A DNA stretch of 64,000 nt from Elusimicrobiota bacterium (GCA_043827405.1 JBDRPD010000001.1:14651-78650), one strand, 5' to 3'; numbered from the stretch's first letter, positions 28,756 to 46,833 are shown. Numbers and translations are program-made. Notes: generated from the letters alone by a model not told the origin.

Positions 28756-28864
28756 CTTTAACTTTTGATTTAAGAATGGGAAAACGTCAGCAAAAGTTAA
28801 TGTTAATAACCGGTACCGAAATAATGTTAAAAACCGGTACCGGATGGAGGGTGGTACCGGATGG
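28741..28864. repeat. AT-rich 27-bp inverted repeat plus GGTACC(G) direct repeats
   Basis: 28741-28767 and 28791-28817 are reverse complements with 1 mismatch. GGTACC occurs at 28741, 28812, 28836 and 28853. Confidence 0.8.
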
Positions 28865-28872
28865 GGGGCGCA

Positions 28873-28901
28873 TTGACAAATCACGGCCGGAGCCTAATAA
28901 T
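28873..28901 (+). promoter_or_regulatory. sigma70 promoter of the kinase pair
   Basis: TTGACA-17 nt-AATAAT, 9 nt before ATG 28911. Confidence 0.65.
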
Positions 28902-28910
28902 TATAGGGCC

Positions 28911-31229: not shown

Positions 31230-31230
31230 G

Positions 31231-32724
31231 ATGCCTATCGCCGCGCTGCTGACGGCCCTGCTGACGGCGGCCGCAGCCGGCGTTTCCGGCGGCGCGTTCG
31301 ACGACTCCAACACCTATACCGAGCAGGCGCGTGCCGCGCTGCGGGCGGGAGACCTCCAGTCCGCGGTCGACCGCACGGGACAAGCGCTGGAGCTTTATCC
31401 CCGGAACGCCGAGGCCTACCGCGTTAGGGCTTCGGCCTTCAATGCGCAGGAGCGCTACAGCGAGGCGGAGATCGCCGCCCATGCGTCCCTGCGCCTGGAG
31501 CCGCGCAGCTCCTACGCCAATAATGAGCTGGCCTGGGCGCTGCTCCATCTGCGGCGCTACGCGGAGGCGGCGGAAAGCGCGTCGCGGTCGATCAGCGGCC
31601 GGCCCGACGGCGCGCAGGCTTATGCGCTGCGCGCCATGGCGCATGAAGGGCTCGGCCTCGGGAAGGAGTCGCTCGCCGATCTGCAGAAGGCCGCGGATCT
31701 GGATCCGCTCCGGCATGGGCAAAGCCTGCAAATCGTGCGCGAGGGCGGCTCGCTGCTCGGCGCCGGCAAGCGGCAGGTCTCGGAAGCGGCTTATGCCGTC
31801 GGGGCGGCGGCGCTGGTGCTGGTCGCGTTTGTCTTATGGGCGCTTTTTCGCAAATCCGCTTCCGCCGCGCGGCAGAAAGAAGAGGCCGCGGTGGAGGTGC
31901 GCGCGCCGCCGCCGCCGGGCCTCGAGGCCGGCGGCCTGATCGCCGGCCGGTACCAGCTCGTCCATATCATCGGCCGCGGCGGCATGGGGCAGGTATGGGA
32001 AGCGCGCGATACGTCGCTTGACCGTCCCGTGGCGGTCAAGGAGTTCTCGCGCGAGCTGGGTGAGCGCGGCTCGCAGCTGCGCGGGCTGTTCGTCCAGGAA
32101 GCGAAGACGGTGGCGGCCTTGAAGCACCGGCATATCGCCGACATCTACGAGATTCTGGACAGCCCGGAAGGGCTGTATATGATCTTCGAGTTCGTGCGCG
32201 GCCGGACCGTGCAGCATATCCTGGCGGAGAGAAAGACGCTCCCGGTTCCCGAGATCCTTACGGTGCTGCGGCCGGTATGCGAGGCGCTGGAATACGCGCA
32301 TCAGCACGGCGTCGTGCACCGCGATCTCAAGCCGTCCAATATAATGGTGGACGAACAGGGCTTTATCAAGCTGCTGGATTTCGGCATCGCCCGGCACCTG
32401 GGAGCGGCCGTCGAGCAGGAGAGCGCCGGAGCCGCGGTTCCCGGCGCGTCGCCGCTGCGTCTGGCGCATACGCGGACCGTCGTCGGCACGCCGGGCTATA
32501 TGCCGCCGGAGGCCGCTGCGGGAATCATCAGCCCCGCCGCCGATGTCTACGCGCTCGGCGTCTGCTTCTACGAAATGCTGACCGGGAATATCCCGCCCTC
32601 GCCGTTTCCGGGCGGGGTGTCTCCCGGGGTGGACGCGCTCATGGCGCGCTGCGTGCATCCGGACTACCGGTCCAGAATACACTCAGCCGGGGAGTTTCGG
32701 GCGATGCTGGAGCGGCTGGCTTAG
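31231..32724 (+). CDS. Receptor-like Ser/Thr protein kinase: signal peptide, TPR, TM helix, intact kinase
   Basis: Start ATG 31231. GRGGMG, VAVK, QEAK, HRDLKPSN, DFG, GTPGYMPPE and DVYALG. Confidence 0.92.
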   Translation: MPIAALLTALLTAAAAGVSGGAFDDSNTYTEQARAALRAGDLQSAVDRTGQALELYPRNAEAYRVRASAFNAQERYSEAEIAAHASLRLEPRSSYANNELAWALLHLRRYAEAAESASRSISGRPDGAQAYALRAMAHEGLGLGKESLADLQKAADLDPLRHGQSLQIVREGGSLLGAGKRQVSEAAYAVGAAALVLVAFVLWALFRKSASAARQKEEAAVEVRAPPPPGLEAGGLIAGRYQLVHIIGRGGMGQVWEARDTSLDRPVAVKEFSRELGERGSQLRGLFVQEAKTVAALKHRHIADIYEILDSPEGLYMIFEFVRGRTVQHILAERKTLPVPEILTVLRPVCEALEYAHQHGVVHRDLKPSNIMVDEQGFIKLLDFGIARHLGAAVEQESAGAAVPGASPLRLAHTRTVVGTPGYMPPEAAAGIISPAADVYALGVCFYEMLTGNIPPSPFPGGVSPGVDALMARCVHPDYRSRIHSAGEFRAMLERLA

Positions 32725-34151
32725 TTTTTACAGGCGTCGTTCATCTGGCGGCCTTGACCCGCGCAGTCGATGGGCACTGAGCTGTCGCCGCCGCGCAGAT
32801 CCGCGCAGGCGGCGCCGATGGCCGCGCCGTGCGTGTTGGCTTTGTCGCAGTAAGAAGTCACTACGGCGACTTTCTGCGCCAGCGTACTTTTGCTTCTTTG
32901 CCAACGGCGTCTCGAAGCGCCGCAGTTGAAGGCCAGGCAGTCCATCAAGGCGTTCCAGAAATCATGCTTCTTGTCGACGCAGTCGCGGATCTGCGCCTGC
33001 GCGACCTTGATCGCCTCGCCCATGCTGTCGAGGGCTTCCTGCTGCGGCGTCTTGTGCGCTTCCGTGGCATCGGTGCATTTCTTGATCTTGCGCTCCTGCT
33101 CTTCAGCCTGCTCTTTGAGCGCCTCGACGTCGCCGGTGCCCGGCAGGGTGCCGCCGCCGCCCATGCCCTGCAGGGAGTCTTTGCTGCCGGGTTCGCGGCC
33201 GCCGTCAAATACCAGGCCGGCCGTGTCCTTCATCAGCGTGCCGCCCGCCTCTTCGGTTTCGCTGGAGCCTTGTGCGGCATGGCTGAAGGCCTGGGCCACG
33301 GTAAGCTGGTACATCACCGTGGACTCGGCGCTCGGCGGTTGGGCGAGCGCTTTCTGGTCGCCGAGGAACTTGCGCGAATTGCGCATCTCGTTGGAGCTGC
33401 CGTGCCTGCCGCCGGTCTTTTGCCCCTTGCCCGCTCCCGGCGCCTGCATATTGCGCAAAGTTTTGTCGACCATGCCGTCGCCCAGATTAACGGGCTTGGC
33501 CTTTACTCCGTCCCGTTTCACCAGCAGGCCGGGGTCCATCATGATATTTGAGTGCTCGCCGGCTCCCGAGCCGCCGCCCGCGCCGGAGTGGTCGCCGGCG
33601 CCGCCGCCTGAATGGCGGATGGACTCGGCGAAGGCCGTATTGACCAGCCCTTCGACCAGCGAGCCTTCATCGACCGGCATCGCGTCGCCGGCCTTCTTCG
33701 CGTCTTCCGGCGTCATGACGCCCTTGATCGACTTGCCGCGTTCCTTGCCGACGCCGTCGTAGGTATACTGGCGCTCATCCTCCATCAGGTAGGCGCCCGA
33801 TACCATCTTGACGCGCGAATGCTTGGGGTTCGGCTTATAGTTGTTCATCGCGGCCAGGCGGCGGCGGATATAGCCGGGGACGCCCTGGTACATCTGGTTG
33901 AGCGCTTCCTGATACGCCTTGAGCTCCACGCCTTCCTGCTTGTTCCTATTGAGAAGCGCCGTGACGCCCAGCTTCTCGGCGACATAGGAGACGCCGGGAA
34001 TCTTGAGGACGACGGAAGGCTTCATGGCGAACAGAATGAGCGCGAGGGAGGCGACCACGACGACGGGACCGGAGCTTCGTCCTTGGCGGAAAGTGAAAAG
34101 CACCGCGGCCAGAAATCCCTTTTTCCTATTTTTTTCCAGGAATTTGCTCAT
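32721..34151 (-). CDS. Membrane-anchored Gly-rich hypothetical protein with a Cys-rich helical C-terminus
   Basis: N-terminal hydrophobic segments after 'EKNRKKG', Gly-rich middle, coiled coil, 8 Cys in the last ~120 aa. AAGGAG and a promoter lie upstream. Confidence 0.7.
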   Translation of the reverse strand: MSKFLEKNRKKGFLAAVLFTFRQGRSSGPVVVVASLALILFAMKPSVVLKIPGVSYVAEKLGVTALLNRNKQEGVELKAYQEALNQMYQGVPGYIRRRLAAMNNYKPNPKHSRVKMVSGAYLMEDERQYTYDGVGKERGKSIKGVMTPEDAKKAGDAMPVDEGSLVEGLVNTAFAESIRHSGGGAGDHSGAGGGSGAGEHSNIMMDPGLLVKRDGVKAKPVNLGDGMVDKTLRNMQAPGAGKGQKTGGRHGSSNEMRNSRKFLGDQKALAQPPSAESTVMYQLTVAQAFSHAAQGSSETEEAGGTLMKDTAGLVFDGGREPGSKDSLQGMGGGGTLPGTGDVEALKEQAEEQERKIKKCTDATEAHKTPQQEALDSMGEAIKVAQAQIRDCVDKKHDFWNALMDCLAFNCGASRRRWQRSKSTLAQKVAVVTSYCDKANTHGAAIGAACADLRGGDSSVPIDCAGQGRQMNDACKN

Positions 34152-34304: not shown

Positions 34305-37300
34305 ATGAACTTGCGCTGGCCGCCAGCTCCGCCCGGACTGCTTCGGAAGTGCCTCGCTTCCGCCGTCGCCGCCTCCCTGCTGGTAACCCAGCAGGGATTT
34401 TTCTTTTATGAGGCGATGGCCGCGCAGTTCGTCGCGCCGAAGGTCGGCGCGGCCGGCATGGGAACCGGCAATGCCGCGGCCGGCGCCGGCGCCGCCGCCA
34501 AGGTGCCCGGCATCCGGCTTGATAATTTCGGCCTGAATCTCTCGGGAGTCAATGCCGCCTCGGTGCTGCCGGCGAATACCGCGATCAACTCTGTCGCGCC
34601 CCAGCTCTCATCCGTCTTGTCGAGCCCGCATGCTCAAACCGTCACCGCGGAAGCGCCCGGTTTGCCGGCCGGCGTGAAGCAGGTCGCGGTCACGCCGAGC
34701 AAGGATATTGAACCGGCGAAAACCGCGGTCTCGCTGCGCGCGGGACTCTCCCAGCTCGGAAGCGCCCTGGTCAAGCCGGCGCGCGGCAAGCGCTCCGGGA
34801 TTCTTGGACGATTCTTCGACCAGGGGAAAAAGCATGACGGCTCCCCCGCTCCGCTCGGGGTCGGCGGTGCCGCGCGCCGGATGACGGGCCTCAGGCCCGG
34901 CGCGGACTTTAGCGTCGATCATTACCAGCGGCTAAAAGAACTCAAGCAGGTCCTGGGCGAAGGAACGCCCGAGGGTGCGGGCTGGATCCGCGCCTTCCGC
35001 TTCCGCGACCCGCAAAACGGCTGGCGCACCGCGCGCTCCGCCGGGCTGGAGGGCTTTTTCTTCACCAAGATCGAGCATGAGCAGACCTGGGGCGGGCTGA
35101 TCTCGTCCGGGCAGCTCGGAGACTACTTCAACTATCTCGACGCTTTGCTGACGCCGGTCGCCTGGACGGCGGACATTCGCCGCGAGCTGGCGGCGCTGCG
35201 CGACGACGCGTCCGTGCCGCTGGTGGAGAAGAACGATCGCCTCAACAAGCTCCTTATCCGTACCTTAGATAGGCTGCGGGCGGAGCTCAAGGAGCTCGAT
35301 AAGGCGCAGTGGGGGCGCAGCGCTCATACCTACGCCATTTTCTCGCGCGCCTACAACCGTTTGCGGCCCGGGAAGAATTTCTTCGATTCCCTCGACGATG
35401 AGGAACTGGCGCGCATCCGCGAGGAGGTCCAGGTCGACCAGCTGTGGCTGCTCGACATCTTCGAGATCGGCGACGTCAAGCGCTGGGGCACCGGCGGCGG
35501 CTCGCCCTACGCCATCAAGGGGTACCGGAAGATAAAGGAAGAGCTGGGCGGCGCGGAGGCTTTCGGCCGCTTCGTGCAGCGCGCGCATGCGCTGGGCTTC
35601 AAGGTCCGCACCGACTTTATCCCGAACCATACCTCGCTTGACAGCGAGCTGGCGCAGCGGCACCCCGAGGCCTTTATTCATCTCCTGCCGCCCCAGCATC
35701 TGTCCGATGACGAGATCTGGGCGCAGACGCCGCGCGAGGCGCAGGGGAACCGTCATCCCAACTTTTACCTGATCAAGACGCGAAGCTACCCGGGACGGGA
35801 GGGAATCGAGACCAAGGTTCTGATCCACCATCCGGTGTCCGACTTCGGGCTGTGGATCGACATGGGACAGATCGACTACAGCCAGAAGACCGCGCGCGCC
35901 TGGTTCATCGAGCAGGCCATGCACCTTTTCGGCGACAAGGGGGTCGACTCCATCCGGCGCGACATGGCCTACTACGTCATTAACGAGAACTACTACGACC
36001 GCTGGCTGAATATCCTGGAGGGAGAAAAGAACGGCGCCGGGGGCTGGGTGCGCGAAGCGCTGGAGCGCACGATCCGCGAGTTCCGCGAGCGCCGCGCGGC
36101 GCTCAACGGCGCCGAGGTGCTCGAGGAATTGACCGATACGGTGAAGCGCCGCTACCCGTCGGCGGTCATGGACGATGAGGTCTATGCCTTCTTCACCGGC
36201 ATGAGCCGCCTGGGGGCCGACGGCATCTACGGCAAGAACACGCAGGACGCGGAGATGGGGCAGTTCGGCCTCTTCGACGCCCTGAAGAGCTTCAACGCGG
36301 GCGCCATCCGCCGGGCCCTGCGCAACAACTTCTTCCGCTTCTGGCAGAAAGGCGGCGCCAGCACGGTGAACTTTGTCGGCAACCACGACGAGGCGAATCC
36401 CGTTGATGTTTTCGGGGTGCGCTTGCGGGCGGCGGCCGCCATGGCGCTCTTGGGCGGGCCGATTTTGACCTATAACGGCTTCGAGCTCGGCACCGGCCAG
36501 CGCGAGATGGTGGGCGACCTGCCGAACTCGGTCGACCGCAACAAGGCCATCCCGTTCGATGTGCCGGTGATGATTCGCTGGGAGACCGTCAACCGGGAGA
36601 ACCGGCTCTTTATCCGGGATCTGCTGCGGGCGCGCCGGCGCAATATCGGCTTGTTTGAGAACGGCGCGGCGTCCGTGCTCGAGCCCTATCAAGACACCCC
36701 GATCGTGGCCTGGTCGGCGAGCCGCCGCGAGGCCGGCCGGCAGGAGACCCTGCTCGTCGCCGGGAACTTTAATCATGATTGGGCCTGGGGGCACTTCAAG
36801 TTCAGCGCGCCGATCCTCGGCGAGTTCGGCGCCTTCCGGCCGCGCGCCGACCGGAACTACATCCTGCGCGACGCCGTGCACCGGGGCGAAGACGGCCGGC
36901 CGCTGACCTTCGAACGCACCGGCAAAGAGCTGCAGGAACAGGGGCTCTTCGTGCACCTGGCTCCCGGCGACGCGCATATCTTCGAGGTCGAAGAGCTCGA
37001 TCCGAGCGCTCCGGCGACCGGGCCGCCTGCCCGCTCGGTCATCAGCCGCCTGCGCGACGCCGCCGTCAGCGGCATCGAAGAGCCGCTGGCCTTCAAGTTT
37101 ACCGGCATCCGCGAGGAGCTCTGGGGACCGCACCATGAAGCGAGGAAGCCGCAGACCTGGGATGCCCTGACCAAATGGCTCACCGACTCGGCCATCCTCG
37201 CCTTCCTGCCGCTGCAGGTGCCGCAGATCATCAAGAACTTCCTGCTGATCTCCGCCGGAACGCTGGCGCCGATCTCGATTCTTCCGTGGATGGGCTATAC

Positions 37301-38096
37301 GACGGGAATTCTCGGCAATATGCTGCTGCTCTCCTATTTCGTCTCCAAGAAAGAGGCGGGGGCCGCCCGGGTGCAGGCGGTCGGCGTAATCACCAGCGGC
37401 ATCGTGCTGGCGCAGATATTCTACGCCGGCTTCATGCCGGCATTCGCTTTTTGGGGCATCGCGGCGATGATGGCGGGCGGGCTGACGCTGAACCTGCTGA
37501 AGTACCTGGGCGTCTTCAACGGCAATATCTGGAAGGCGTGGACCATGATCAGCGGACTGACCGGGCTGGGAGTGCTGCCCACCGTGTTATGGTCGACCTT
37601 CATGCCGCAGATGTCGGTTTGGCCGGCGGTGGTGACCCTGGCGGGAGGACTCATCTTCCTCCTGCTGCAGCGGCTCGGCAAGCTTCCCAAGGGACTGGAG
37701 AACACCTGGTCCAAGCTCTCGGCCTGGACGGCGACCATGCTCTTTATGTTCGGCCCCATCGCCCAGCTGGTCAGCAACTTCGCCAATCCCGCCAATATCG
37801 CGGGGCTCTCGCTGCTCACCCTCATGCTGGCGACCGCGGGCAATGCCTTGATGCTGCCCCGCGCGATCCTGACCAAGGACCGCATCTGGCTCACCGGGAG
37901 CTTGTGGGCGGTGGCGATGGGCGGCTGGGCGGTGATGCTCAGCATGCTGCTTTACGGCGCCGTCTCGCCGCTGTTCTTCGCGGGTTTTTCCGTCATTCTG
38001 CCGGTCTACCTGGCCTTCATTATCCGCCAAGCCATGAAGCATCACGGGGCGACTTTCCGCGAGCTCCTGCGCTCGCTGGTTAAAGGCGGCGCCTAA
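34305..38096 (+). CDS. Leader-tagged GH13 alpha-amylase-family enzyme fused to a MEX1-like maltose transporter domain
   Basis: GH13 motifs GSPYAI, DFIPNH, DSIRRDMA (nucleophile), DEVY and NHDE. The C-terminal ~310 aa are multi-pass, with 'WD.LT...FL.LQVPQII.N', 'PWMGYTTGILGNMLLLSYF', 'WTATMLFM', 'GNALMLPRA' and 'D.IWLTGSLWA', matching recalled plant MEX1 motifs. Confidence 0.85.
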   Translation: MNLRWPPAPPGLLRKCLASAVAASLLVTQQGFFFYEAMAAQFVAPKVGAAGMGTGNAAAGAGAAAKVPGIRLDNFGLNLSGVNAASVLPANTAINSVAPQLSSVLSSPHAQTVTAEAPGLPAGVKQVAVTPSKDIEPAKTAVSLRAGLSQLGSALVKPARGKRSGILGRFFDQGKKHDGSPAPLGVGGAARRMTGLRPGADFSVDHYQRLKELKQVLGEGTPEGAGWIRAFRFRDPQNGWRTARSAGLEGFFFTKIEHEQTWGGLISSGQLGDYFNYLDALLTPVAWTADIRRELAALRDDASVPLVEKNDRLNKLLIRTLDRLRAELKELDKAQWGRSAHTYAIFSRAYNRLRPGKNFFDSLDDEELARIREEVQVDQLWLLDIFEIGDVKRWGTGGGSPYAIKGYRKIKEELGGAEAFGRFVQRAHALGFKVRTDFIPNHTSLDSELAQRHPEAFIHLLPPQHLSDDEIWAQTPREAQGNRHPNFYLIKTRSYPGREGIETKVLIHHPVSDFGLWIDMGQIDYSQKTARAWFIEQAMHLFGDKGVDSIRRDMAYYVINENYYDRWLNILEGEKNGAGGWVREALERTIREFRERRAALNGAEVLEELTDTVKRRYPSAVMDDEVYAFFTGMSRLGADGIYGKNTQDAEMGQFGLFDALKSFNAGAIRRALRNNFFRFWQKGGASTVNFVGNHDEANPVDVFGVRLRAAAAMALLGGPILTYNGFELGTGQREMVGDLPNSVDRNKAIPFDVPVMIRWETVNRENRLFIRDLLRARRRNIGLFENGAASVLEPYQDTPIVAWSASRREAGRQETLLVAGNFNHDWAWGHFKFSAPILGEFGAFRPRADRNYILRDAVHRGEDGRPLTFERTGKELQEQGLFVHLAPGDAHIFEVEELDPSAPATGPPARSVISRLRDAAVSGIEEPLAFKFTGIREELWGPHHEARKPQTWDALTKWLTDSAILAFLPLQVPQIIKNFLLISAGTLAPISILPWMGYTTGILGNMLLLSYFVSKKEAGAARVQAVGVITSGIVLAQIFYAGFMPAFAFWGIAAMMAGGLTLNLLKYLGVFNGNIWKAWTMISGLTGLGVLPTVLWSTFMPQMSVWPAVVTLAGGLIFLLLQRLGKLPKGLENTWSKLSAWTATMLFMFGPIAQLVSNFANPANIAGLSLLTLMLATAGNALMLPRAILTKDRIWLTGSLWAVAMGGWAVMLSMLLYGAVSPLFFAGFSVILPVYLAFIIRQAMKHHGATFRELLRSLVKGGA

Positions 38097-39175: not shown

Positions 39176-39255
39176 GTCCTAATAAAATTTGGGTCCAATT
39201 CCTGTGAAATGCGGTCTGGTTGACCCATGCGTATTCGCTGTTTTCCCAATAAGAT
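39176..39255 (+). promoter_or_regulatory. Conserved promoter architecture, copy 2
   Basis: GTCCTA-N8-TGGGTC-N24-TTGACCCATGC-N19-TAAGAT, 7 nt before ATG 39263. Confidence 0.75.
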
Positions 39256-39262
39256 CATAGAG

Positions 39263-40561
39263 ATGAGCGTTTTCCTTAGAAAGCTTCTGGCGTCCGTCAT
39301 CACCGCTTCCCTGCTGGTGGCCCAGCAGGGTTTTTCTTTTAGCGCTCAGGCGGCGATCAAGGTGAACCTCGCGGCGACGAGCGGCGGCTCCAGCGCGGCG
39401 GCGGCGGCGGGCGGCGTTATCGGCGCCAATAGCGCGCTCAACAATCTTAAACTTTCCGCCCAGGGCTTGAACCTTAAGACCGGCGTCCTGCCGTCGGTGA
39501 ATATGCCGAATGTCTCGGTGAACGGCGCCGTCGGTAATGTCGAAACCGTGCTGCCGCTGTCGGTGGCGGCGCCGACTATGGAAGCCAAGAAAGCCCAGGG
39601 AGTCGGGACCGTCTCCGCCGCTGAGGTTCCGGCCGCCGCGCCGGCGCTGGCAAGGAACGGGCACCAGAAAACGGTGATGCGCCGGGCCGCTCGCATCCAG
39701 CAGGCGCTGGGCAAAAAGACTGCCACCGAACTGCATCAGCTTTTCGATAATGCGCGCCAGGCCGGCGCGGAAAACTTCGTCGGGGCGGAAGAAAGCGGCG
39801 CGAAAAAGCCGGCGGTGAAGCTTAAGCCGGCCGCGGAAGCCCCGGTCAAGAAACGCCGGCTCATCGAGTTCCGTCCCGAGGTCATCAAGGGCATCAAGGA
39901 AGCTTTCCGCAGTTCGTGGACCCGGCCCAACAAGCAGGACTATACCTACCTGGTCACCAAGACTTTCGGCGTCAACCTGGCGGTGCGGCTCGGCTTTGTC
40001 ATCCAGGGCGTCATGGGCGGCACTTTGCCGCTGCTGCGGGCCATTCTGTCGACCACCTGGTATCAGGCGCAGGACGCGGTCTTCACCGTTTTCGGGCAGA
40101 CCTATATGAAGTTCCTCAACAAGATGACGGGTCTGCTGCGCATCCATAACGCCGAGGTCGGCGACTTCCTCTTCATCTATACCCAGCTCGTCTTCTTCGA
40201 ATTCCTTAACCGGCTCGTGCTCGGTCCCTTGGGCGCCAATCCGCTGGTCTATAGCTGGGCCGGCATAGGGCTGATTTTCCTCAATATCATACAGGGCATG
40301 ATCGCCGGCGGTCCGCTCATCCCGGCCATCAACAAGATGCACAAGGCGGGCGTGATCAAGCACTCCACCATGATGCATCTCTACCAGATATCCAGCCTGA
40401 CCATGCATCTGGGGCTGTTCGCGACCTTCGGCTTTCAGTCGATCTTTACCTTGCTCAGCACCATCCTCATGTTCATATCGTGGGGGCTTTACCTCTACTT
40501 TACGGCCTTCTACAAGCCGCCTCCCGGCGCCGTATTGCCCGACGAGTCCAACGGCCTCTGA
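39263..40561 (+). CDS. Leader-tagged multi-pass membrane protein of unknown family
   Basis: Start moved to ATG 39263. Leader is homologous to those of 34305 and 40664. The C-terminal ~210-aa membrane domain is paralogous to 45628-46833. Confidence 0.8.
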   Translation: MSVFLRKLLASVITASLLVAQQGFSFSAQAAIKVNLAATSGGSSAAAAAGGVIGANSALNNLKLSAQGLNLKTGVLPSVNMPNVSVNGAVGNVETVLPLSVAAPTMEAKKAQGVGTVSAAEVPAAAPALARNGHQKTVMRRAARIQQALGKKTATELHQLFDNARQAGAENFVGAEESGAKKPAVKLKPAAEAPVKKRRLIEFRPEVIKGIKEAFRSSWTRPNKQDYTYLVTKTFGVNLAVRLGFVIQGVMGGTLPLLRAILSTTWYQAQDAVFTVFGQTYMKFLNKMTGLLRIHNAEVGDFLFIYTQLVFFEFLNRLVLGPLGANPLVYSWAGIGLIFLNIIQGMIAGGPLIPAINKMHKAGVIKHSTMMHLYQISSLTMHLGLFATFGFQSIFTLLSTILMFISWGLYLYFTAFYKPPPGAVLPDESNGL

Positions 40562-40575
40562 CCTCCCGTCCGTTG

Positions 40576-40655
40576 GGCCTATTATTTTTTGGGTCCTATT
40601 TCATCCGAATCAGACCTTGTTGACCCATGCGGGCCCGGCGCTTCGCGGTTAATAT
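40576..40655 (+). promoter_or_regulatory. Conserved promoter architecture, copy 3
   Basis: GGCCTA-N8-TGGGTC-N24-TTGACCCATGC-N19-TAATAT, before GTG 40661 / ATG 40664. Confidence 0.75.
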
Positions 40656-40663
40656 TAATAGTG

Positions 40664-43213
40664 ATGATACGCTTTAAGAAGATTCTCGCCTCGCTTCTCT
40701 CAGCCTCCCTGCTGATCGCCCAGCAGGGCTTTTTATTCCGGGCGGACGCGGCGGTCAAGGTCAATGTCGCGGGAACCGCGAGCGGCGGCGGCGCGGCCGC
40801 GGCGGCCGGGGGCTCTCTCGGCGTCAACAATGCATCGCTTAACAGCCTCCAGCTTTCCAATCAGGGCCTGAACCTCAAGACCGGCGTCCTGCCTTCGGTC
40901 GGCAACATTCAGGCGGAGATAAATCCGCAGTCGTTAATAAAGTCGGTCGCCCTTCCCAAGGCGGTCGCCGCGCAGGGGATCGCCGGCAAAGTCAAAGCCG
41001 CTGAATCGATTGCGCAGCCGGGAGCGGAGACCAAGGAAGCGAAGGTTTCTCCCTCCGCGCAGGCCCGGACGCTGTCGCGCGAGCTCGCAAAGAGCTCTAA
41101 GAAGGAGCGCGGCGGCCTGCTCAGCAAGTTTTTCGACAGCTCCAAGCACGGCCTGTCGCATAAGGATGCGGCGGTCGAGCCGGGCGAGGGCGATTTCGGC
41201 GGCGGCCGCAGCGGGCTCAATAAGAAGCCCGGCCTCAAAGAGCTGCGCACGCTGCTCGTTGACGGTACGGTCGCCGAGGACGGTCCGCTCCAGCCTTTCG
41301 GCTTCCGGACGCCGGATGGGACTTATGTCGCGGCGCCGACGGCGGGTCTGGAATCCTTCTTTGAAGCCAAGCAGACCCATGAATGGCGCCATGGTGAGGC
41401 GAACTCGTCCGGACAGGTCAACGATTACTTCAACTATCTCGACGCGCTTCTCGCGCCGCTGGCCTGGACGGTAGAGATTCGACGCGATCTGAGGACCCTC
41501 AAGCTTTTGGCGATGGATGACCTGGCGAAAAACCGCGCGCTTAACGAGCTTCTTATAAAGACCGTCGGCCGGATTCAGAGCATGGAGGTCAAGGAAATTC
41601 TGGCCGGCTCCAAGGCGCCGAACTCTTTGGAAGAGGCGACGCTGGATATCGATCCGAACCGGGAGTACTACCCCTCGCCGGAAGATTGGCGCGACGAGGT
41701 CATCTACTTCTCCATGATCGACCGCTTTTCACGGAGCAAGAAGGGGATGCCGCGCGGCGACCCTAAAGACGGCGGCTCCCGTCATGGCGGCGACATCCGG
41801 GGCATCATCGACCGCCTGGACTACATCAAGGAGTCCGGCGTTACTTCAATCCTTTTCACCCCGGTTACCATGGGATTGCCCAAGGCCTATCATGGCTACG
41901 CTCCCCTGCATCTCCTCGAAGTCGATCCCCATCTGGGCACCATGGAGGATTACAAGGAGATGGTCCGCGAGGCGCATAAGCGCGGCATCCGGGTTATTAT
42001 GGACCTGGTCCTCAACCATACCGGGCCGGTTTTCGAGTACAAAGACGGCAGCCGCTGGTCGGGTGTCGATAAGCCGCGCAAAGAGATCGACGATTGGACC
42101 TTTGACCTGAAGCCCGTTGAGCTTAAGGACGCGGGACGCTTCTCGCGGCGGGGCGTCATCGACGACTGGCAGCATCCGGACCAGGTGACCAAGGGCGACT
42201 TCCCGCCCAACTACCGGCACTTCCGGACCGACGATCCCAAGACGCGCAAGATGCTGACCCAGGTGGCGCTGTGGTGGCTCAAAGAAACCGATGTCGACGG
42301 TTTCCGCCTCGATGCCATTCGCCATGTCGATCCCTCTTTCTGGCCGGAGTTCAACCGCGCGGTGCGGCAATACGCCGCCAAGCTCGGCAAGAAGAACTTC
42401 TTCCTGCTGGGCGAGAACTCGACCGGGGTGGACTGGGAGCTGCTGCAGTATATGGGGAAGGACCAGTTTGACAGCACCTACAACTATCCGTCTTACCGCC
42501 GAGACAATAAGGCGCTGCACGGCGCCGCGCCGACGAAAGCGCTCGAAGACAGCATTAAGGCCAACCTCTCGGTTCTCGGCGGCTTTGCCGGGTACTTATT
42601 ACGCTTCATCGATCTGCACGACACCTACCGCTTCCTGCGCTCGCGCGAGCCCATCAACATCCTCAAGCTGGGGATGACCTACCTGATGTTCTCGCTCGGC
42701 ATCCCGATCGTCTACGCCGGCACGGAGCAGGCCATGCGGCAGTACGTCGACAGCCTGGACCCGGAGGGGCCGCACCAGCCGGCCGACCCGCAGAACCGTG
42801 AGGACATGTTCCCCGAGGGGCAGTTTAAGTCCGAGAGCTCCAAGGGCGATATGTTTAATGCGGAATCGGACACTTTTAAGTTCCTGCGCCGGCTCGCGGA
42901 CCTGCGGCAAAAGCATCCGGCCCTGCGCCGCGGCGAACACCAACCGCGCTGGGTCGATCCTTACGGCCCCGGCATCTATGCATTCAGCCGCATCTACGGT
43001 GACGAGGAGGTCCTGGTGGTTATGAACACCTCCGGCGTCGAGCGCTCGGCCTCCATGTACGTTGACGCCGAGCGCAGCCCGGGCGGCACCCGGTTCGCCG
43101 ACGAGCTCGACCGCGCCTACACGGGCGTCGCCAAGACCCACCCCGAAGGCGGCTCCATGCTCGACGTCACCGTCCCCGCCAACGGCGTGCGCGTCCTCGT
43201 CCGCCGCCGCTAA
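40664..43213 (+). CDS. Leader-tagged GH13 alpha-amylase-family glycosidase
   Basis: DWRDEVIYF..IDRF, GGDIRGIIDRLDYI, YHGY, DLVLNH, DGFRLDAIRH, GEN and DLHD. Start could be 40661. Confidence 0.92.
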   Translation: MIRFKKILASLLSASLLIAQQGFLFRADAAVKVNVAGTASGGGAAAAAGGSLGVNNASLNSLQLSNQGLNLKTGVLPSVGNIQAEINPQSLIKSVALPKAVAAQGIAGKVKAAESIAQPGAETKEAKVSPSAQARTLSRELAKSSKKERGGLLSKFFDSSKHGLSHKDAAVEPGEGDFGGGRSGLNKKPGLKELRTLLVDGTVAEDGPLQPFGFRTPDGTYVAAPTAGLESFFEAKQTHEWRHGEANSSGQVNDYFNYLDALLAPLAWTVEIRRDLRTLKLLAMDDLAKNRALNELLIKTVGRIQSMEVKEILAGSKAPNSLEEATLDIDPNREYYPSPEDWRDEVIYFSMIDRFSRSKKGMPRGDPKDGGSRHGGDIRGIIDRLDYIKESGVTSILFTPVTMGLPKAYHGYAPLHLLEVDPHLGTMEDYKEMVREAHKRGIRVIMDLVLNHTGPVFEYKDGSRWSGVDKPRKEIDDWTFDLKPVELKDAGRFSRRGVIDDWQHPDQVTKGDFPPNYRHFRTDDPKTRKMLTQVALWWLKETDVDGFRLDAIRHVDPSFWPEFNRAVRQYAAKLGKKNFFLLGENSTGVDWELLQYMGKDQFDSTYNYPSYRRDNKALHGAAPTKALEDSIKANLSVLGGFAGYLLRFIDLHDTYRFLRSREPINILKLGMTYLMFSLGIPIVYAGTEQAMRQYVDSLDPEGPHQPADPQNREDMFPEGQFKSESSKGDMFNAESDTFKFLRRLADLRQKHPALRRGEHQPRWVDPYGPGIYAFSRIYGDEEVLVVMNTSGVERSASMYVDAERSPGGTRFADELDRAYTGVAKTHPEGGSMLDVTVPANGVRVLVRRR

Positions 43214-45619
43214 ATGAGCCCGCAGTCCTGGCTCGGAAAATCCATTTACTTCATTCTGACCGACCGCTTCTACAACGGCGACAAGTCCAATGACGACTTC
43301 GGCCAAGGTGAGTACGATCCCCAGAGCGACGATTGCTTCCAGGGCGGCGATCTTAATGGCATAACGCGCAAGCTCCCGCATATCAGGAAGCTGGGCTTCG
43401 ACGCGATCTGGCTCACTCCGCCGGTGCATAACCAGTGGATCAACCCCTATATCGCGACCCGGGGCTTCCACGGCTACTGGGCCTACGATTTTACCCGGGT
43501 CGATCCCCATTTCGGCACCTTGGAGGATTACAAGAGGCTGGTGCGCGAGGCGCATAAGCTCGGCCTCAAGGTGATCCAGGATATCGTCGTTAACCACACG
43601 GGCAACTTCTTTACGGTCGACGACAAAGGCTACGATCCCCGGAAGCCGGAAAAGAACTGGCGCGGCGTGATCAAGAAGGGCGCCAAGGCGCCGCGTGATC
43701 CGGTCTTCAAGCTGAACAACCCGAACAATCCCGCGCACAAGAAGGCGGGCGTCTACAACTTCACGCCCAATATCTCCGATTTCAAGAGCCGTGAGCAGAC
43801 CTTGACCTACTCCATGGGCGACCTCGACGACATCAACCTGCGCAGCCCGCTGGCCGCCAACCGGATGAAGGAGATCTACCGCTACTGGATCGAGGAAGTG
43901 GGGATCGACGGCTACCGGGTCGATACCGTCTACTACACGCCGGAGGATTTCTACGAGGGCTTTCTCTACGATGATTCGCCGCAGCACCCCGGCATCAAGC
44001 GGGGGAACAAGGACTTCTTCGTCTTCGGCGAGGTGTGGTCCTACGACTATAAGGCGATAAATAAATATCTCAAAGACGGACGGACAAAGCGGCTGGACTC
44101 CGCGATCGACCTGCCGCTCAACGAGGCCCTGACCCAGGTATTCTATCGCAAGACCCCGACCGAGGACCTGCGCAAAGCGCTGTCCGCCCGGCGGCACAAC
44201 CGGAACCTGTGGGTCAATTTCCTCGACAACCACGACGTCGAACGGATGAACAGCCGCGCCAACTGGCGCAGCGTCCGGCAGTCCTTGGTCGCGCTGTTTA
44301 CGCTGCCCGGCATCCCCTGCGTTTACTACGGCACCGAAGCCGGCTTCAAGGCGGCGCGGCAGAATATGTTCAAGGACAGCTGCTACGATGAGAAATCGAA
44401 GTATTGCCGGTTTCTGCGCCAACTGCTTCGCTTGCGCAAACAGCATCCGGCCCTGAGCCGCGGCGCCTGCTCGGTCGAGCGGGCCTCGTTCTCCTGCGGG
44501 GTGCTGTCCTATGCGGTCGAGCATGCCGGAGAGCGCTACCTGATGGTCTTTAATACGGCGCCGGACCGCATGTTCTATGAGCTGGAGGAGGGGCGGTCTT
44601 ATCAGGTGCTGCTGTCATCCGAGAAGGATCGAGCGGCCGGCGGTGCAATGATATTAGCGCCGGAGTCGTACTACGTGCTCAAGGCCGGGGGACGCAAGGA
44701 GAAAGCCGGGAAGGGCCGGCCGAATATCCGCATGCGTCCGCTGCGTCCGGGAACATACTCCGACGACATCGGCATCCGCTTCCGGCTCGACAAGCCCGGG
44801 AAGATCAGCGGCCTGTATCTGCTCTCTAACGACAACTTCGATAAGAGGGTCAAGATCGCACAGCCCCGGGACGGCAAGCTTAGTCTACGCGCCGCCGAGC
44901 TTGATAACGGCAAGCATCGTCTGCGCCTGCTGGCGAAGACCGGGACCCAAAGCTTCAGTGCGTCCGCCAGCTCGGAGATCACGGTGCGCAACGCTTACCG
45001 GCGGCTGACGGATTTTACGCTGCCGGCGGGAAATAAGGGCGGCCTGGACTGCGAGCTTCATATTCCCGCGGACCCGAGCTATGACCGGCAGTGCTCAATC
45101 GAACGCGTCAGCGTCTATTCGAGCGGCAGGGATTTGCGGCTGCAGCTGAAGATGGCCAATGTCACCGATGATTGGAACCCGCCGCACGGCTACGATCACG
45201 TCTACTTTAATGTGCTCTTCGACTTCCCCGGGGAAAAGGGCCGGTGCTTTTTCCCGAAGATGAACTACCGGTGCCGGGATTTCGCGTTCAATGCCGGCTT
45301 TCTGCTTTACGGCTGGGGCGCCCAGTCCTACGGGACGAAAGGTGCGTCGGAGGACGCCTACGGCGAGCCGCTGTTCGGGGAGATCGTGCAGGCCGCTGAT
45401 TTAAAGACGCAAACGATCACTTTTACGTTTTCCAGCAAGTTCTTCGATTCCCTGAAGACGCTCGACGGGGTAAAGATCTTCCTCTCCACCTGGGACGGCT
45501 ATCTCGCGGATTTCCGCAAGATCGCGAACCGGAAATCGGACTGGGAATTCTATACCCTCAAAAGCGGGCGCATCGAGGATGTTCCCCGCATCTTCGATTA
45601 TGCGATAATCCGTATCTAG
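43214..45619 (+). CDS. GH13 alpha-amylase-family glycosidase with no signal or leader, and a C-terminal glucodextranase/DOMON-like domain
   Basis: IYFILTDRFYNGD, FHGYW, DIVVNH, DGYRVDT, GEVW and FLDNHD. C-terminal 'WNPPHGYDHV' motif. Confidence 0.9.
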   Translation: MSPQSWLGKSIYFILTDRFYNGDKSNDDFGQGEYDPQSDDCFQGGDLNGITRKLPHIRKLGFDAIWLTPPVHNQWINPYIATRGFHGYWAYDFTRVDPHFGTLEDYKRLVREAHKLGLKVIQDIVVNHTGNFFTVDDKGYDPRKPEKNWRGVIKKGAKAPRDPVFKLNNPNNPAHKKAGVYNFTPNISDFKSREQTLTYSMGDLDDINLRSPLAANRMKEIYRYWIEEVGIDGYRVDTVYYTPEDFYEGFLYDDSPQHPGIKRGNKDFFVFGEVWSYDYKAINKYLKDGRTKRLDSAIDLPLNEALTQVFYRKTPTEDLRKALSARRHNRNLWVNFLDNHDVERMNSRANWRSVRQSLVALFTLPGIPCVYYGTEAGFKAARQNMFKDSCYDEKSKYCRFLRQLLRLRKQHPALSRGACSVERASFSCGVLSYAVEHAGERYLMVFNTAPDRMFYELEEGRSYQVLLSSEKDRAAGGAMILAPESYYVLKAGGRKEKAGKGRPNIRMRPLRPGTYSDDIGIRFRLDKPGKISGLYLLSNDNFDKRVKIAQPRDGKLSLRAAELDNGKHRLRLLAKTGTQSFSASASSEITVRNAYRRLTDFTLPAGNKGGLDCELHIPADPSYDRQCSIERVSVYSSGRDLRLQLKMANVTDDWNPPHGYDHVYFNVLFDFPGEKGRCFFPKMNYRCRDFAFNAGFLLYGWGAQSYGTKGASEDAYGEPLFGEIVQAADLKTQTITFTFSSKFFDSLKTLDGVKIFLSTWDGYLADFRKIANRKSDWEFYTLKSGRIEDVPRIFDYAIIRI

Positions 45620-45627
45620 AGTCCCCC

Positions 45628-46833
45628 ATGCCTTTACCTGCGAACAAGGATGTGGTCGTCATCGCCCTCGACACCGCGGCGGATAAGCGTGAGTACTTTC
45701 TGTGCTCCGGCTCGGATCTCGGCGGCGGAGACGGCTTTAAGAAGGTGCGGCCCGGCACCCTCTTCGCGCCGGAGAACGACGCCTTTTTCGCGTCGTTGGC
45801 GGACGGCGGCAGGGTTCACATTATCGTCTATCCGACGCGTACCTACTCCGAAGGTTTCGGCGGCAGCATGTTCTCGGACATCGCCCCCGAGGATCGCCGG
45901 ATGATTCGCAAGATAAGGGCGCGCTACGAGGATAGAACGGACTGCTGCAAGGTTCCGCTCAGCGATACGCTGCTGTTCGAGGGGCTGGAGAAGTATTTCG
46001 CCGGCGACGAGGAGCGGGCGCGGTACCGCAGTGAGAAAAGCGCGCCGGTCGAGAAGAAGCAGGAGCGGATCAAGAGGGAGGGGAAGCGCGGCTTTTTTAC
46101 GGTCGATCCGAAGTATCTCATCAACATCAAAGAAATATTTGTCAGCTGCATGACCCGCCCCAACCGCCAGGACTATATGTGGCTGGCGACCAAGACCTTT
46201 GGGCTGAACCTGGTGGTCCGGCTCTTCTTTGTCTGCAAGGGGGTGATGAGCGGAGACCTGTCGATGGTCCGCGCCGTTCTTTCCACGACCTGGTACCAGA
46301 TCCAGGACGCCGTCTTCACGGTCTTCGGCCAGACCTATATGAAGTTCCTTGGCAAGATGACCGGGCTTATCCGCATTCGCAACGCGCAGGTCGGGGACTT
46401 CGTCTTCGTCTACTTCCAGCTCTGCGGCTTCGAGTTCCTCAACCGTCTGCTGCTGGGCCCTCTTGGAGAGAACCCGCTCGTCTATACCGGGTTCGGCATC
46501 GGGCTCATCTTCGTCAATATCCTGCAGGGCATGCTCTCCGGCGGTCCGCTTATTCCCGCGATCAATAAGATGCGGCGGGCCGGAGTCATCAGCCACCCGG
46601 TGATGATGCATCTCTATCAGGCCTCGAGCTTGACCATGCAGTTCGGCCTGTTGGCGAGCTTCGGCTACCAGACCTTCTACGCGATACTAACCGGCGCCGT
46701 GCTGGTCTTCTCTTGGTCGAGCTACGTGATCTTCTCGACCTTCTTCAAGGACCCGGAGTTTTCCGGCGTCACCGACCGGGAGCTGATGGCCAAGCTCGAC
46801 GGTCTCGCCGCCAAGTGCTACGCCTCCTCCTGA
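45628..46833 (+). CDS. Multi-pass membrane protein; untagged paralog of 39263-40561
   Basis: Shares 'RPN.QDY..L.TKTFG.NL.VRL', 'STTWYQ.QDAVFTVFGQTYMKFL', 'FEFLNRL.LGPLG.NPLVY' and 'GGPLIPAINKM'. Has a different soluble N-terminal domain. Confidence 0.8.
   Translation: MPLPANKDVVVIALDTAADKREYFLCSGSDLGGGDGFKKVRPGTLFAPENDAFFASLADGGRVHIIVYPTRTYSEGFGGSMFSDIAPEDRRMIRKIRARYEDRTDCCKVPLSDTLLFEGLEKYFAGDEERARYRSEKSAPVEKKQERIKREGKRGFFTVDPKYLINIKEIFVSCMTRPNRQDYMWLATKTFGLNLVVRLFFVCKGVMSGDLSMVRAVLSTTWYQIQDAVFTVFGQTYMKFLGKMTGLIRIRNAQVGDFVFVYFQLCGFEFLNRLLLGPLGENPLVYTGFGIGLIFVNILQGMLSGGPLIPAINKMRRAGVISHPVMMHLYQASSLTMQFGLLASFGYQTFYAILTGAVLVFSWSSYVIFSTFFKDPEFSGVTDRELMAKLDGLAAKCYASS

Follow-up and report, generated by a model that had tools for sequence, protein, structure and literature searches.

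A gene in an Elusimicrobiota genome almost certainly encodes a genuine fusion of a GH13 hydrolase with a membrane domain of the MEX1 family, the family of the inner-envelope maltose exporter of green-algal and plant plastids. MEX1 is the main night route for leaf starch out of the chloroplast. On our overall reading, which we regard as probable, an intact Elusimicrobiota gene specifies one polypeptide in which the GH13 module is tethered to the N-terminus of a 10-helix, uniporter-type MEX1-family domain, and hydrolysis and transport would be coupled.

Gene architecture and genomic setting

The window, by which we mean the whole stretch of 64,000 nucleotides that was analysed, belongs to the metagenome-assembled genome of a groundwater Elusimicrobiota bacterium (98% complete, 0.5% contamination). 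An initial annotation of this DNA had described an ORF with a multi-pass domain in frame behind a GH13 domain, and this description holds: the frame at 34305..38096 is open throughout, encodes 1263 aa plus the stop at which that annotation had ended it, and closes with a 10-helix domain. In the database copy of the protein (P0004; 1226 aa) the start is called at M38. The main features are the following.

34305..38096, plus strand: whole ORF, with leader, N-region, GH13, linker and MEX1-type domain
34305..34421, plus strand: N-terminal leader, residues 1-39, with a basic n-region, a short hydrophobic stretch, LLVTQQGFFFYE and AMA
34374..34407, plus strand: 10-bp inverted repeat with a T-run inside the leader codons, a terminator-like hairpin or palindromic site
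34422..35291, plus strand: pre-GH13 N-domain and Ala/Gly/Ser/Pro-rich low-complexity stretch, residues 40-329, with similarity to the N-region of a neighbour
35292..37004, plus strand: GH13 module, residues 330-900, TIM barrel and C-terminal beta domain (PF00128; AF2 model)
35961..35963, plus strand: codon of D553, catalytic nucleophile (RRD), invariant in 19/19 aligned fused homologues
36177..36179, plus strand: codon of E625, general acid/base (DDE), invariant in 19/19
36387..36389, plus strand: codon of D695, transition-state stabiliser (NHD), invariant in 19/19
37005..37133, plus strand: flexible linker, residues 901-943, with pLDDT <50 where the GH13 model ends, without hydrophobic segment
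37134..38093, plus strand: MEX1-type membrane domain, residues 944-1263, ten long helices and a C-terminal amphipathic helix
37221..37238, plus strand: first PQ motif PQIIKN, residues 973-978, helix 1; P, Q and N invariant in 30/30
37755..37766, plus strand: second PQ-like motif PIAQ, residues 1151-1154, helix 7; Q nearly invariant, register as in the first motif
40589..43213, plus strand: second GH13 (listed length 874 aa), which shares leader and N-domain and has no membrane domain
43214..45619, plus strand: third GH13, carrying DUF3459 and Glucodextran_C, part of the window context

The N-region is 36% identical over 273 residues to that of the neighbouring GH13 at 40589, whose probable start is the Met of MIRFKK, and the N-domain is also found in a leaderless paralogue on contig C32. 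The ATG of the third GH13 directly follows the TAA of the preceding ORF in the same frame. Genes for a GH77 4-alpha-glucanotransferase and for a glycogen phosphorylase, which could use maltose or maltodextrin, are also present in the genome. Among related loci, collected by a search with a 6-sequence alignment, three have two GH15 glucoamylase genes downstream (L016, L017, L020), four have sugar-type ABC transporter genes nearby (L006, L009, L010, L015) and one has a GH13 upstream (L003).

Family membership of the membrane domain

Sequence comparison confirmed the C-terminal domain as a full-length member of the MEX1 family. A phmmer search of the full protein library with residues 932-1263 (332 aa) returned 423 cluster representatives at E<=1e-3, 98 of them at E<=1e-30; a word-indexed search with the membrane domain alone gave one fragment only, and the whole-library search was required. 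Full-length homology to MEX1, which the initial annotation had named among its checks, was found with a protein of Klebsormidium nitens (P0018; about 49-50% identity, E 1.4e-86, query 14-316) and with the “maltose excess protein 1-like, chloroplastic” of Cucurbita maxima (P0048; 39-40% identity, E 6e-55, query 14-321 of 332). Chance alone would not come near similarity of this degree. Every Arabidopsis MEX1/RCP1 motif that the initial annotation had listed is present and coincides with the consensus of 30 aligned MEX1-type sequences, and the window protein keeps all columns of that alignment that are invariant (8) or nearly so (18). PF28566, named MEX1_N in the Atlas, is precomputed on the database copy.

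With plastid MEX1 the domain has 39-50% identity over its whole length, colinear motifs, the invariant residues, the 10-helix layout and an alternating K/R pattern in common. The window protein differs in being bacterial, in having no transit peptide and in carrying about 940 extra N-terminal residues with GH13; its domain falls outside the plastid MEX1 clade, from which a 100/100 split separates it together with the other bacterial domains, and is a family member rather than part of the eukaryotic orthologue group. Further bacterial members are hypothetical cyanobacterial proteins of about 365-380 aa from Nodosilinea nodulosa PCC 7104, Limnothrix, Picosynechococcus and Myxosarcina, which group with the window clade in the ML tree (99/91) on a long stem branch. 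They are 33% identical to the window domain and, unlike the window protein, stand alone without leader or GH13.

According to the accessible text of a 2007 survey, MEX1 had no homologue outside the green lineage and its origin was called unknown (PMC2246286). Bacterial homologues are not wholly unknown, since a 2026 preprint, in the part available, includes cyanobacteria in its MEX1 tree (10.64898/2026.09.25.754361) and Pfam 38.1 includes a MEX1_N model. Our literature search found no description of a GH13–MEX1 fusion and no paper with MEX1 and Elusimicrobia together; by their titles, papers on Elusimicrobia with maltose, amylase or transporter were gut and rumen surveys only. The family of plastid MEX1 has a bacterial branch that is both deep and diverse and has 40-50% identity with the MEX1 proteins of plants and algae. 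Its proteins are intron-free, have the enzyme built in and may be easier than the plant protein for transport or structural work.

Predicted fold of the membrane domain

MEX1 had initially been described as unrelated to classical sugar carriers, which is wrong at the level of the fold: the domain is predicted to have the SWEET/PQ-loop fold and MEX1 would therefore have relatives among sugar carriers of a known class. The AF2 model (pLDDT 91.5, 10 long helices) aligned by VIA-align with OsSWEET2b (5ctg_A) at Z 15.1 over 207/214 residues, with AtSWEET13 at Z 13.7, with cystinosin at Z 13.6/12.9 and with the KDEL receptor at Z 10.7, against a background in which the best unrelated row reached Z 10.2. 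A Foldseek search of the PDB gave no match at E<=1e-3, its top rows being SWEET and cystinosin, and a PDB sequence search gave 0 matches, i.e. no solved relative. The PQ-loop Pfam model scores 16-17 bits at the first PQ motif of the window protein (cut-off 22) and appears at E<=0.1 in 14/30 family members. In the accessible parts of papers that mention MEX1 with PQ-loop or MtN3, the terms are not connected.

Like SWEET/SemiSWEET and PQ-loop carriers (OsSWEET2b 5ctg, AtSWEET13 5xpd, cystinosin 7zk1/8dke), the domain has two parallel triple-helix bundles that each begin with a PQ-type motif (PQ 973-974, PxxQ 1151-1154), and nearly the whole 7-helix target is aligned at Z 15.1-12.9. It lacks the 7-helix 3+1+3 architecture, and neither PF04193 nor PF03083 scores above cut-off. 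Judging from the AF2 model and the alignment, it would have ten helices instead of the seven of SWEETs, with three linker helices in place of one and an extra C-terminal helix. The K/R pattern suggests insertion opposite to the orientation of SWEETs. SWEET/PQ-loop carriers are regarded as facilitators, and the predicted fold offers a structural frame for MEX1 mutagenesis.

The GH13 module

The module has the features of the GH13 family: PF00128 (Alpha-amylase) matches residues 374-733 at 46 bits (cut-off 22), the AF2 model (pLDDT 81.8) has the (beta/alpha)8 fold, and the conserved regions are found as DFIPNH (437-442), RRD (D553), DDE (E625) and NHD (H694-D695). The three catalytic acids had been judged intact from the window alone; in the alignment of 19 fused homologues D553, E625 and D695 are indeed invariant, as is H694 (CSR-IV) in 19/19, and H442 (CSR-I) is nearly so. 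A PDB fold search gave at least 500 GH13-type matches at E<=1e-3, the best being the maltogenic amylase AmyB (4gkl_A; E 4.2e-19, TMt 0.75), and a PDB sequence search gave 3dhu_A (2.4e-20) and 4gkl_A (4.7e-14). The best NCBIfam match, MalA, remained at 39.5 bits, far under its cut-off of 875.

By sequence and fold, AmyB of Thermotoga neapolitana (GH13_48) and the Lactobacillus plantarum amylase 3dhu are closest to the module, which shares with them CSR-I, the nucleophile region, NHD and the Asp directly before the acid/base. It differs from both in R552 and in having about 75 additional residues inserted between CSR-II and CSR-III. It is also joined to a membrane domain, whereas titles in reference lists term the characterised enzymes intracellular. 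The available text of a study of these subfamilies describes GH13_48/49 as typically having Cys directly before the nucleophile and Asp directly before the acid/base (PMC11239784). Filing the module under GH13_48/49 was rejected on account of R552, an invariant R in the 19 fused homologues at the place of this Cys. The hydrolase is nearest to the “maltogenic/intracellular amylase” groups of GH13_48/49 and non-canonical; because R552 replaces the typical Cys, the label “maltogenic” is only an analogy.

Recurrence and integrity of the fusion

Of 57 bacterial rows (proteins or open frames), 31 have the same GH13 type ahead of the MEX1 domain, at a distance of 20-60 residues, as against 0 eukaryotic rows. 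This recurrence shows that the junction is real, as the initial annotation had supposed. All named carriers are Elusimicrobiota MAGs, and the fused set includes giant proteins of 2048-2792 aa which also have S8, HEAT or M50 domains. The remaining 26 bacterial members (13 Elusimicrobial-type, 13 cyanobacterial-type) are without GH13, and the carrier therefore does not need the enzyme.

It is extremely improbable that the fusion arose as a chimera during assembly or reflects eukaryotic contamination of the bin, and we consider this reading effectively refuted. It could appeal to the metagenomic assembly of the genome and to the read data: the sole contig spanning 35800-38300 in one piece comes from run X1, possibly the source run, whereas the independent run X2 of another study contains the region at 95-100% identity in two pieces (36809-37055 and 37077-38086) that do not bridge the GH13–membrane junction; runs X3 and X5 contain short pieces of the region only. 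Against it stand the GH13–linker–MEX1 order in 30 further open frames from other assemblies and the long database homologues, 12/13 of which carry both Pfam families while the 13th shows GH13 on rescanning. Within the contig (>78 kb), the gene is a single uninterrupted frame of even GC (0.63-0.65, matching the flanks) and bacterial genes adjoin it on both sides.

Topology and proposed function

Evidence on the side of the membrane occupied by the enzyme is contradictory. The leader, with a hydropathy peak of 1.48 at residue 16, looks like a Sec signal peptide, and signal-peptide-like leaders open all Elusimicrobial family members. Since the leader is export-like and 8 fused proteins showed no further membrane segment on the way from it to the MEX1 domain, even when thresholds were lowered, GH13 would lie outside. 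In contrast, K+R alternates strictly loop by loop in the 57 bacterial rows (means: N-flank 1.9, then 0.25, 1.7, 0.1, 2.5, 0.25, 3.5, 0.2, 2.4, 0.1, C-tail 2.3), and this positive-inside pattern would put the N-terminus of the domain, hence GH13, in the cytoplasm. We lean slightly towards a cytoplasmic enzyme, which would trap sugar metabolically after uptake or, as in chloroplasts, supply maltose from glycogen for export; there is close to an even chance that it is periplasmic, in which case the product would be made at the entrance of the carrier and then imported.

Judged from the domains, the protein probably hydrolyses alpha-glucan and couples this to the facilitated diffusion of maltose or a malto-oligosaccharide, where we infer substrate, coupling, direction and the side of the enzyme. 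Positioned at the carrier mouth, the GH13 module would cleave alpha-1,4-glucan or maltodextrin, the MEX1-type domain would pass the small product or substrate (maltose or short malto-oligosaccharide) down its gradient across the cytoplasmic membrane, and the fusion would hold the local gradient steep. We hold this coupled mechanism to be fairly likely. An unlikely alternative is that the domain carries another solute, such as glucose, trehalose or longer dextrins, or mainly anchors the amylase at the membrane, with no enzyme–transport coupling. By their PDB entry titles, SWEET-fold relatives handle solutes or ligands as different as sugars, cystine and KDEL peptides, a GH13 that has no membrane domain bears the same leader and N-domain, and the enzyme is missing from nearly half of the bacterial members examined (26/57), all of which would fit this alternative. 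It accords poorly with the 40-50% identity to plastid MEX1 and the retention of all family-invariant residues, with an alpha-glucan enzyme as partner in 31/31 fused rows and with the alpha-glucan genes next door; moreover, a pure anchor would not require 10 conserved helices. As a “Rosetta-stone” protein, the fusion provides a link between the carrier and alpha-glucan breakdown that does not depend on plant genetics.

Phylogeny and the origin of MEX1

Trees were built with FastTree (119 rows) and with IQ-TREE under LG+G4 (65 rows chosen to represent clades, 54 rows left out). The unrooted ML tree separates 34 eukaryotic from 31 bacterial rows at 100/100, and in it the clade of bacterial domains is sister to all plastid MEX1. 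No crown green group contains the bacterial rows (100/100; all of 200 bootstrap trees), and recent capture is therefore excluded; they attach basally, between the groups of streptophytes and chlorophytes, and a short branch separates the two sides. The gene had been proposed to bear on the origin of MEX1, either as a bacterial source or as a capture from an alga. Placement outside crown Chloroplastida argues against capture from a modern alga, and narrows the question. AU tests rejected neither a clade of cyanobacteria and eukaryotes (p 0.30) nor monophyly of Elusimicrobiota (p 0.27), and we therefore claim no donor. A cyanobacterial source, an Elusimicrobial source and transfer from a stem green alga are all compatible with the tree.

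We give some preference to a bacterial origin of the family, either Elusimicrobiota-type or cyanobacterial via the plastid, with acquisition by the green-algal ancestor and the fused protein as a relative of the source. Eukaryotes form one side of the 100/100 branch with bacteria at the base of the green groups, the bacterial side comprises two phyla, several Elusimicrobial families and many architectures, midpoint rooting places eukaryotes inside bacterial diversity, and the AU test leaves cyanobacteria with eukaryotes standing. However, the tree is unrooted, Elusimicrobiota monophyly is likewise not rejected, and the family is sparse in bacteria: a match was found in 22/401 genomes of the Elusimicrobiota phylum sample, all of one class though of several families, and few cyanobacteria have a MEX1-type protein. 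The preprint cited above, in its accessible part, also deems a cyanobacterial origin unlikely. It is possible, though rather doubtful, that MEX1 arose in a stem or early green alga and that one ancient bacterial capture was followed by fusion to GH13 and by passage between Elusimicrobiota and cyanobacteria. The family is universal in the green lineage and patchy in bacteria, the window domain is more similar to Klebsormidium (49% identity) than Klebsormidium is to Cucurbita (42%), and the short branch between the two sides would also suit such a capture. The position of the bacterial rows outside every crown green group speaks against it, and transfer from eukaryote to bacterium with spread across two phyla takes more steps than the bacterial origin that we prefer.

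A bolder proposal, which we regard as doubtful, is that plastid MEX1, for long regarded as an invention of the green lineage, derives from a bacterial SWEET-fold carrier that in Elusimicrobiota became hard-wired to a maltogenic-type GH13 on the cytoplasmic face, that such fusions form a new class of “hydrolase-coupled facilitators”, and that the leader with its conserved hairpin serves regulation or anchoring at this locus specifically and is no ordinary signal peptide. If so, the protein could export maltose from internal glycogen, as the chloroplast night pathway in one polypeptide, or alternatively achieve uniport uptake driven by immediate hydrolysis. Besides the fusion gene, the leader occurs on the ORFs at 39227 and 40589; genome-wide it is restricted to these 3 ORFs, all in the fusion-gene locus. 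The inverted repeat in its codons is kept in 7 instances, with 2 compensatory changes.

The GH13 and MEX1 halves of a fused gene

The open reading frame at 34305-38096 on the plus strand (1263 uninterrupted codons) joins a GH13 domain to a C-terminal membrane domain of the type of MEX1, the maltose exporter of green algal and plant plastids. The observation is confirmed, and the central part of its interpretation stands. The novelty of the gene is a new architecture joining two known families, and its worth lies in the light it throws on the origin and mechanism of MEX1. The window has the GC content of bacterial high-GC DNA (0.60-0.70) and lies on contig C1 of a 4.33 Mb genome (108 contigs, 98% complete, 0.5% contaminated), in which the MEX1-type domain is present in a single copy. 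Sequencing runs labelled groundwater metagenome contain this stretch.

Residues 932-1263, searched with phmmer against 1.84 billion representative sequences, returned 423 matches at E<=1e-3; 245 of these reach E<=1e-10 and 98 reach E<=1e-30. Names were looked up for 30 of them, and the named eukaryotes comprise Klebsormidium nitens, a JGI 'Mesen1' protein, Ceratodon purpureus, Spirogloea muscicola, Cucurbita, Neomeris, Botryococcus, Chlorokybus, a Pedinophyceae species and an MMETSP transcript; the Cucurbita match is annotated 'maltose excess protein 1-like, chloroplastic'. In an alignment of 30 sequences (A1), colinearity extends from the W..T motif ahead of helix 1 through helix 10, and the window protein keeps all 8 columns that are invariant and all 18 that are nearly so. 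The homology and colinearity with MEX1 proposed in the initial annotation are thus confirmed. In addition, Atlas groups the domain with clusters bearing the Pfam model PF28566 'MEX1_N' (score 0.93-0.90).

The AF2 model of the membrane domain (pLDDT 91.5) shows ten long helices followed by an amphipathic one at the C-terminus. Foldseek by itself gave no match at E<=1e-3 for this domain. VIA-align, searched against 48,161 chains, ranked OsSWEET2b first (Z 15.1, 207/214 residues aligned, rmsd 4.2, model residues 18-287), followed by AtSWEET13 (13.7), two cystinosins (13.6 and 12.9) and the KDEL receptor (10.7), with generic helical bundles beginning at Z 10.2; since helical models score high by chance in this ranking, the fold assignment rests on the near-complete coverage of five related targets. 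The PQ-loop Pfam model is matched by 14/30 family members at E<=0.1 (best 1.4e-7). We infer from the model and its fold matches a layout of two bundles, helices 1-3 and helices 7-9, which three linker helices would join, with helix 10 as an addition.

The GH13 half matches PF00128 at residues 374-733 (46 bits against a cut-off of 22), with the conserved regions DFIPNH (437-442), RRD (D553), DDE (E625) and NHD (H694-D695). Across 19 aligned fused homologues, R551, R552, D553, D624, E625, H694 and D695 are invariant, and D437, N441 and H442 nearly so; the three catalytic acids D553, E625 and D695 are therefore intact, as first read from the sequence. The AF2 model of residues 301-952 (pLDDT 81.8) matches GH13 structures, led by 4gkl_A (E 4.2e-19, TMt 0.75), whose PDB entry is titled 'noncanonic maltogenic alpha-amylase AmyB from Thermotoga neapolitana', and then by trehalose synthases, GlgE and 3dhu. 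The leading sequence matches are 3dhu_A (2.4e-20) and 4gkl_A (4.7e-14). In the available text of PMC11239784, the T. neapolitana enzyme is the type of subfamily GH13_48, and a Cys immediately before the nucleophile is common to GH13_48 and GH13_49. The window protein instead carries R552 at this position and was therefore filed in neither subfamily.

Recurrence and distribution of the fusion

PF28566 and PF00128 occur together on 12 of 13 long database proteins, and in the thirteenth (P0011, 2048 aa) a GH13 was seen on rescanning. When a profile of this GH13 type was run over the proteins and open frames with a MEX1 domain, it found a GH13 of the same type 20-60 residues upstream, in frame, in 31 of the 57 bacterial rows with a full MEX1 domain and in none of the eukaryotic rows. 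Of the 26 bacterial rows without GH13, 13 are cyanobacterial-type proteins that begin at the MEX1 domain; the other 13 are of Elusimicrobial type and have a leader and a low-complexity N-region of 150-300 aa. Because the same order recurs across separate assemblies, an assembly chimera is effectively ruled out. The fused reading of the initial annotation is thus upheld by recurrence, whereas read-level support for the junction is partial: one contig spans it, from a run that is possibly the source itself, and an independent run gave only pieces, none bridging the junction. Three Elusimicrobial giants of 2048-2792 aa (P0011, P0021 and P0022, at the related loci L004, L008 and L015) also carry subtilase S8, HEAT repeats, HSP20 or an M50 peptidase region and keep the GH13-MEX1 end.

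A one-genome-per-species scan with two peptide patterns, which can miss further loci, found 22 loci, by title 18 from Elusimicrobia/Elusimicrobiota, three from a 'bacterium' and one from Nodosilinea nodulosa PCC 7104. Within the window's phylum, 22 of 401 genomes match at E<=1e-3, counting the genome itself and one doubtful case (G090; E 5e-4, stops present). By family, matches were found in 4/9 genomes of f1, 1/2 of f2, 13/48 of f3, 2/4 of f8 and 1/1 of f11, and none in the searched genomes of f4 (118), f16 (89) and the remaining families. Further cyanobacterial members come from Limnothrix, Synechococcus moorigangaii, Myxosarcina and Picosynechococcus.

In the available text of a 2007 study, MEX1 is Plantae-specific, with no identifiable homologues beyond this group (PMC2246286). 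A preprint (10.64898/2026.09.25.754361) describes it, in the text available, as a new transporter that green algae and plants evolved, and mentions that its MEX1 tree contains a limited number of cyanobacteria; 'Elusimicrob' is absent from its main text as available. The literature searched contained no description of bacterial GH13-MEX1 fusions or of a SWEET-type fold for MEX1.

Phylogeny and origin of MEX1

The starting set was 136 proteins or frames covering at least 240 profile positions; without exact duplicates and six near-copies it came to 119 rows. FastTree separated these into a bacterial side of 57 rows and a eukaryotic side of 62 (support 99), the latter made up of one group with all named streptophytes and one with all named chlorophytes. 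With IQ-TREE (LG+G4) on 65 hand-chosen rows, the split received 100/100 and appeared in 100% of 200 bootstrap trees, a test that is not fully independent, since the FastTree split that supplied its labels was made on these very data. These labels agree with every named row (10/34 eukaryotic and about 15/31 bacterial rows carry names). The five cyanobacterial rows join the database protein P0039 and the window's clade (99/91). In AU tests of two groups chosen after the tree had been seen, a clade of cyanobacteria and eukaryotes (delta lnL 12.9, p 0.30) and an Elusimicrobiota-only clade (delta lnL 12.8, p 0.27) both stay unrejected. Identity over kept columns is 49% between the window and Klebsormidium, 42% between Klebsormidium and Cucurbita, 37% between Cucurbita and Neomeris and 33% between the window and Nodosilinea.

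The initial annotation had named a bacterial source of MEX1 and capture from an alga as alternatives and called for a phylogeny with algal, plant and bacterial matches. Such a phylogeny is now available, and capture of the bacterial genes from a crown green alga is excluded by its bacterial/eukaryotic split; the ancient transfer may have run in either direction.

Gene neighbourhood

Features of the window around the GH13-MEX1 gene
9859-20160, minus strand: 3433-aa open reading frame
28776-32724: two neighbouring genes for TPR-containing Ser/Thr protein kinases, upstream
32721-34151, minus strand: 476-aa unannotated ORF, divergent from the GH13-MEX1 gene
34305-38096, plus strand: GH13-MEX1 gene
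39227-40561, plus strand: leader-bearing membrane protein
43211-43213: TAA of an 874-aa GH13 ORF
43214: ATG of the next GH13 ORF, same frame
45628-46833, plus strand: membrane-protein paralogue with a leaderless soluble N-region of ~150 aa

Downstream, the same strand carries first a gene of the Na/Ca-exchanger family and the leader-bearing membrane protein. Two GH13 genes come next, one with the leader and the other with a Glucodextran_C module, and then the leaderless paralogue; MurNAc-recycling genes lie on the flanks of the region. The two membrane proteins are 53% identical over 295 residues and belong to no Pfam family. The junction of the two GH13 ORFs at 43205-43220 could reflect stop-start coupling or a split/readthrough pair, and the genome search gave a single 1685-aa open frame across it. 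Among 45 flanking ORFs scanned from 10 related loci, the fused gene has beside it GH15 glucoamylase pairs (L016, L017, L020), sugar-type ABC transporter genes (L006, L009, L010, L015) or a GH13 (L003). The host genome also encodes a GH77 enzyme, a glycogen phosphorylase and about eight GH13 genes.

Sidedness of the enzyme

As judged from sequence features, the GH13 may be periplasmic: every Elusimicrobial member opens with a basic n-region, a hydrophobic stretch of 12-15 residues and an AxA-like site, and this leader is the sole hydrophobic segment ahead of the MEX1 domain. The distribution of charges conflicts with the leader and suggests that the enzyme may be cytoplasmic, since K+R per loop alternates strictly across all ten helices, both in the bacterial rows (57) and in the eukaryotic ones (62), and the helix 1 N-flank and the C-tail fall on the positive side. 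Several relatives also point to the cytoplasm. The leaderless cyanobacterial members begin at the helix 1 N-flank, and the membrane domain of the leader-bearing ORF 39227-40561 has its 53% identical counterpart in the leaderless 45628-46833. Titles in the reference list of PMC11239784 call the characterised GH13 relatives of T. neapolitana and Haloarcula japonica 'intracellular'. A paralogue of the enzyme module (N-domain and GH13) exists without a leader in the same genome, as a 666-aa open frame on contig C32 (E 1.6e-82, GH13 profile). The T. neapolitana title presumably concerns AmyB. Speculatively, a monotopic or hairpin anchor would reconcile both sets of evidence.

Leader and inverted repeat

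The bipartite leader, a signal-peptide-like part followed by an Ala/Gly-rich KVN...AAAAAGG...QGLNLKTGVLPSV, is confined to three ORFs of the host genome, all at this locus (34305-34600, 39227-39560 and 40664-41000). Their passengers differ: GH13-MEX1, a membrane domain without a Pfam family, and GH13. An inverted repeat of 9-11 bp, CCCTGCTGG-N4-CCAGCAGGG, encodes the conserved leader peptide (S)LLVxQQGFFF, and a terminator-like T-run follows it in four of the first six cases.

Positions of the inverted repeat
Window: 34374-34407; 39309-39340; about 40697-40740
Related loci: L001 near 3943; L005 near 3220; L011 near 2456; L014 near 68

The stem is kept by paired changes, in L014 by a synonymous CTG>TTG with CAG>CAA, and in L005 by CTG>CTC with CAG>GAG, which replaces Q by E. 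A nucleic-acid element, which could be an attenuator hairpin or else a palindromic operator, therefore seems to be under selection within the first 35 codons. The GH13-MEX1 gene has, directly past the T-run, an in-frame ATG with GAGG ahead of it, and the database gene call begins at this ATG.
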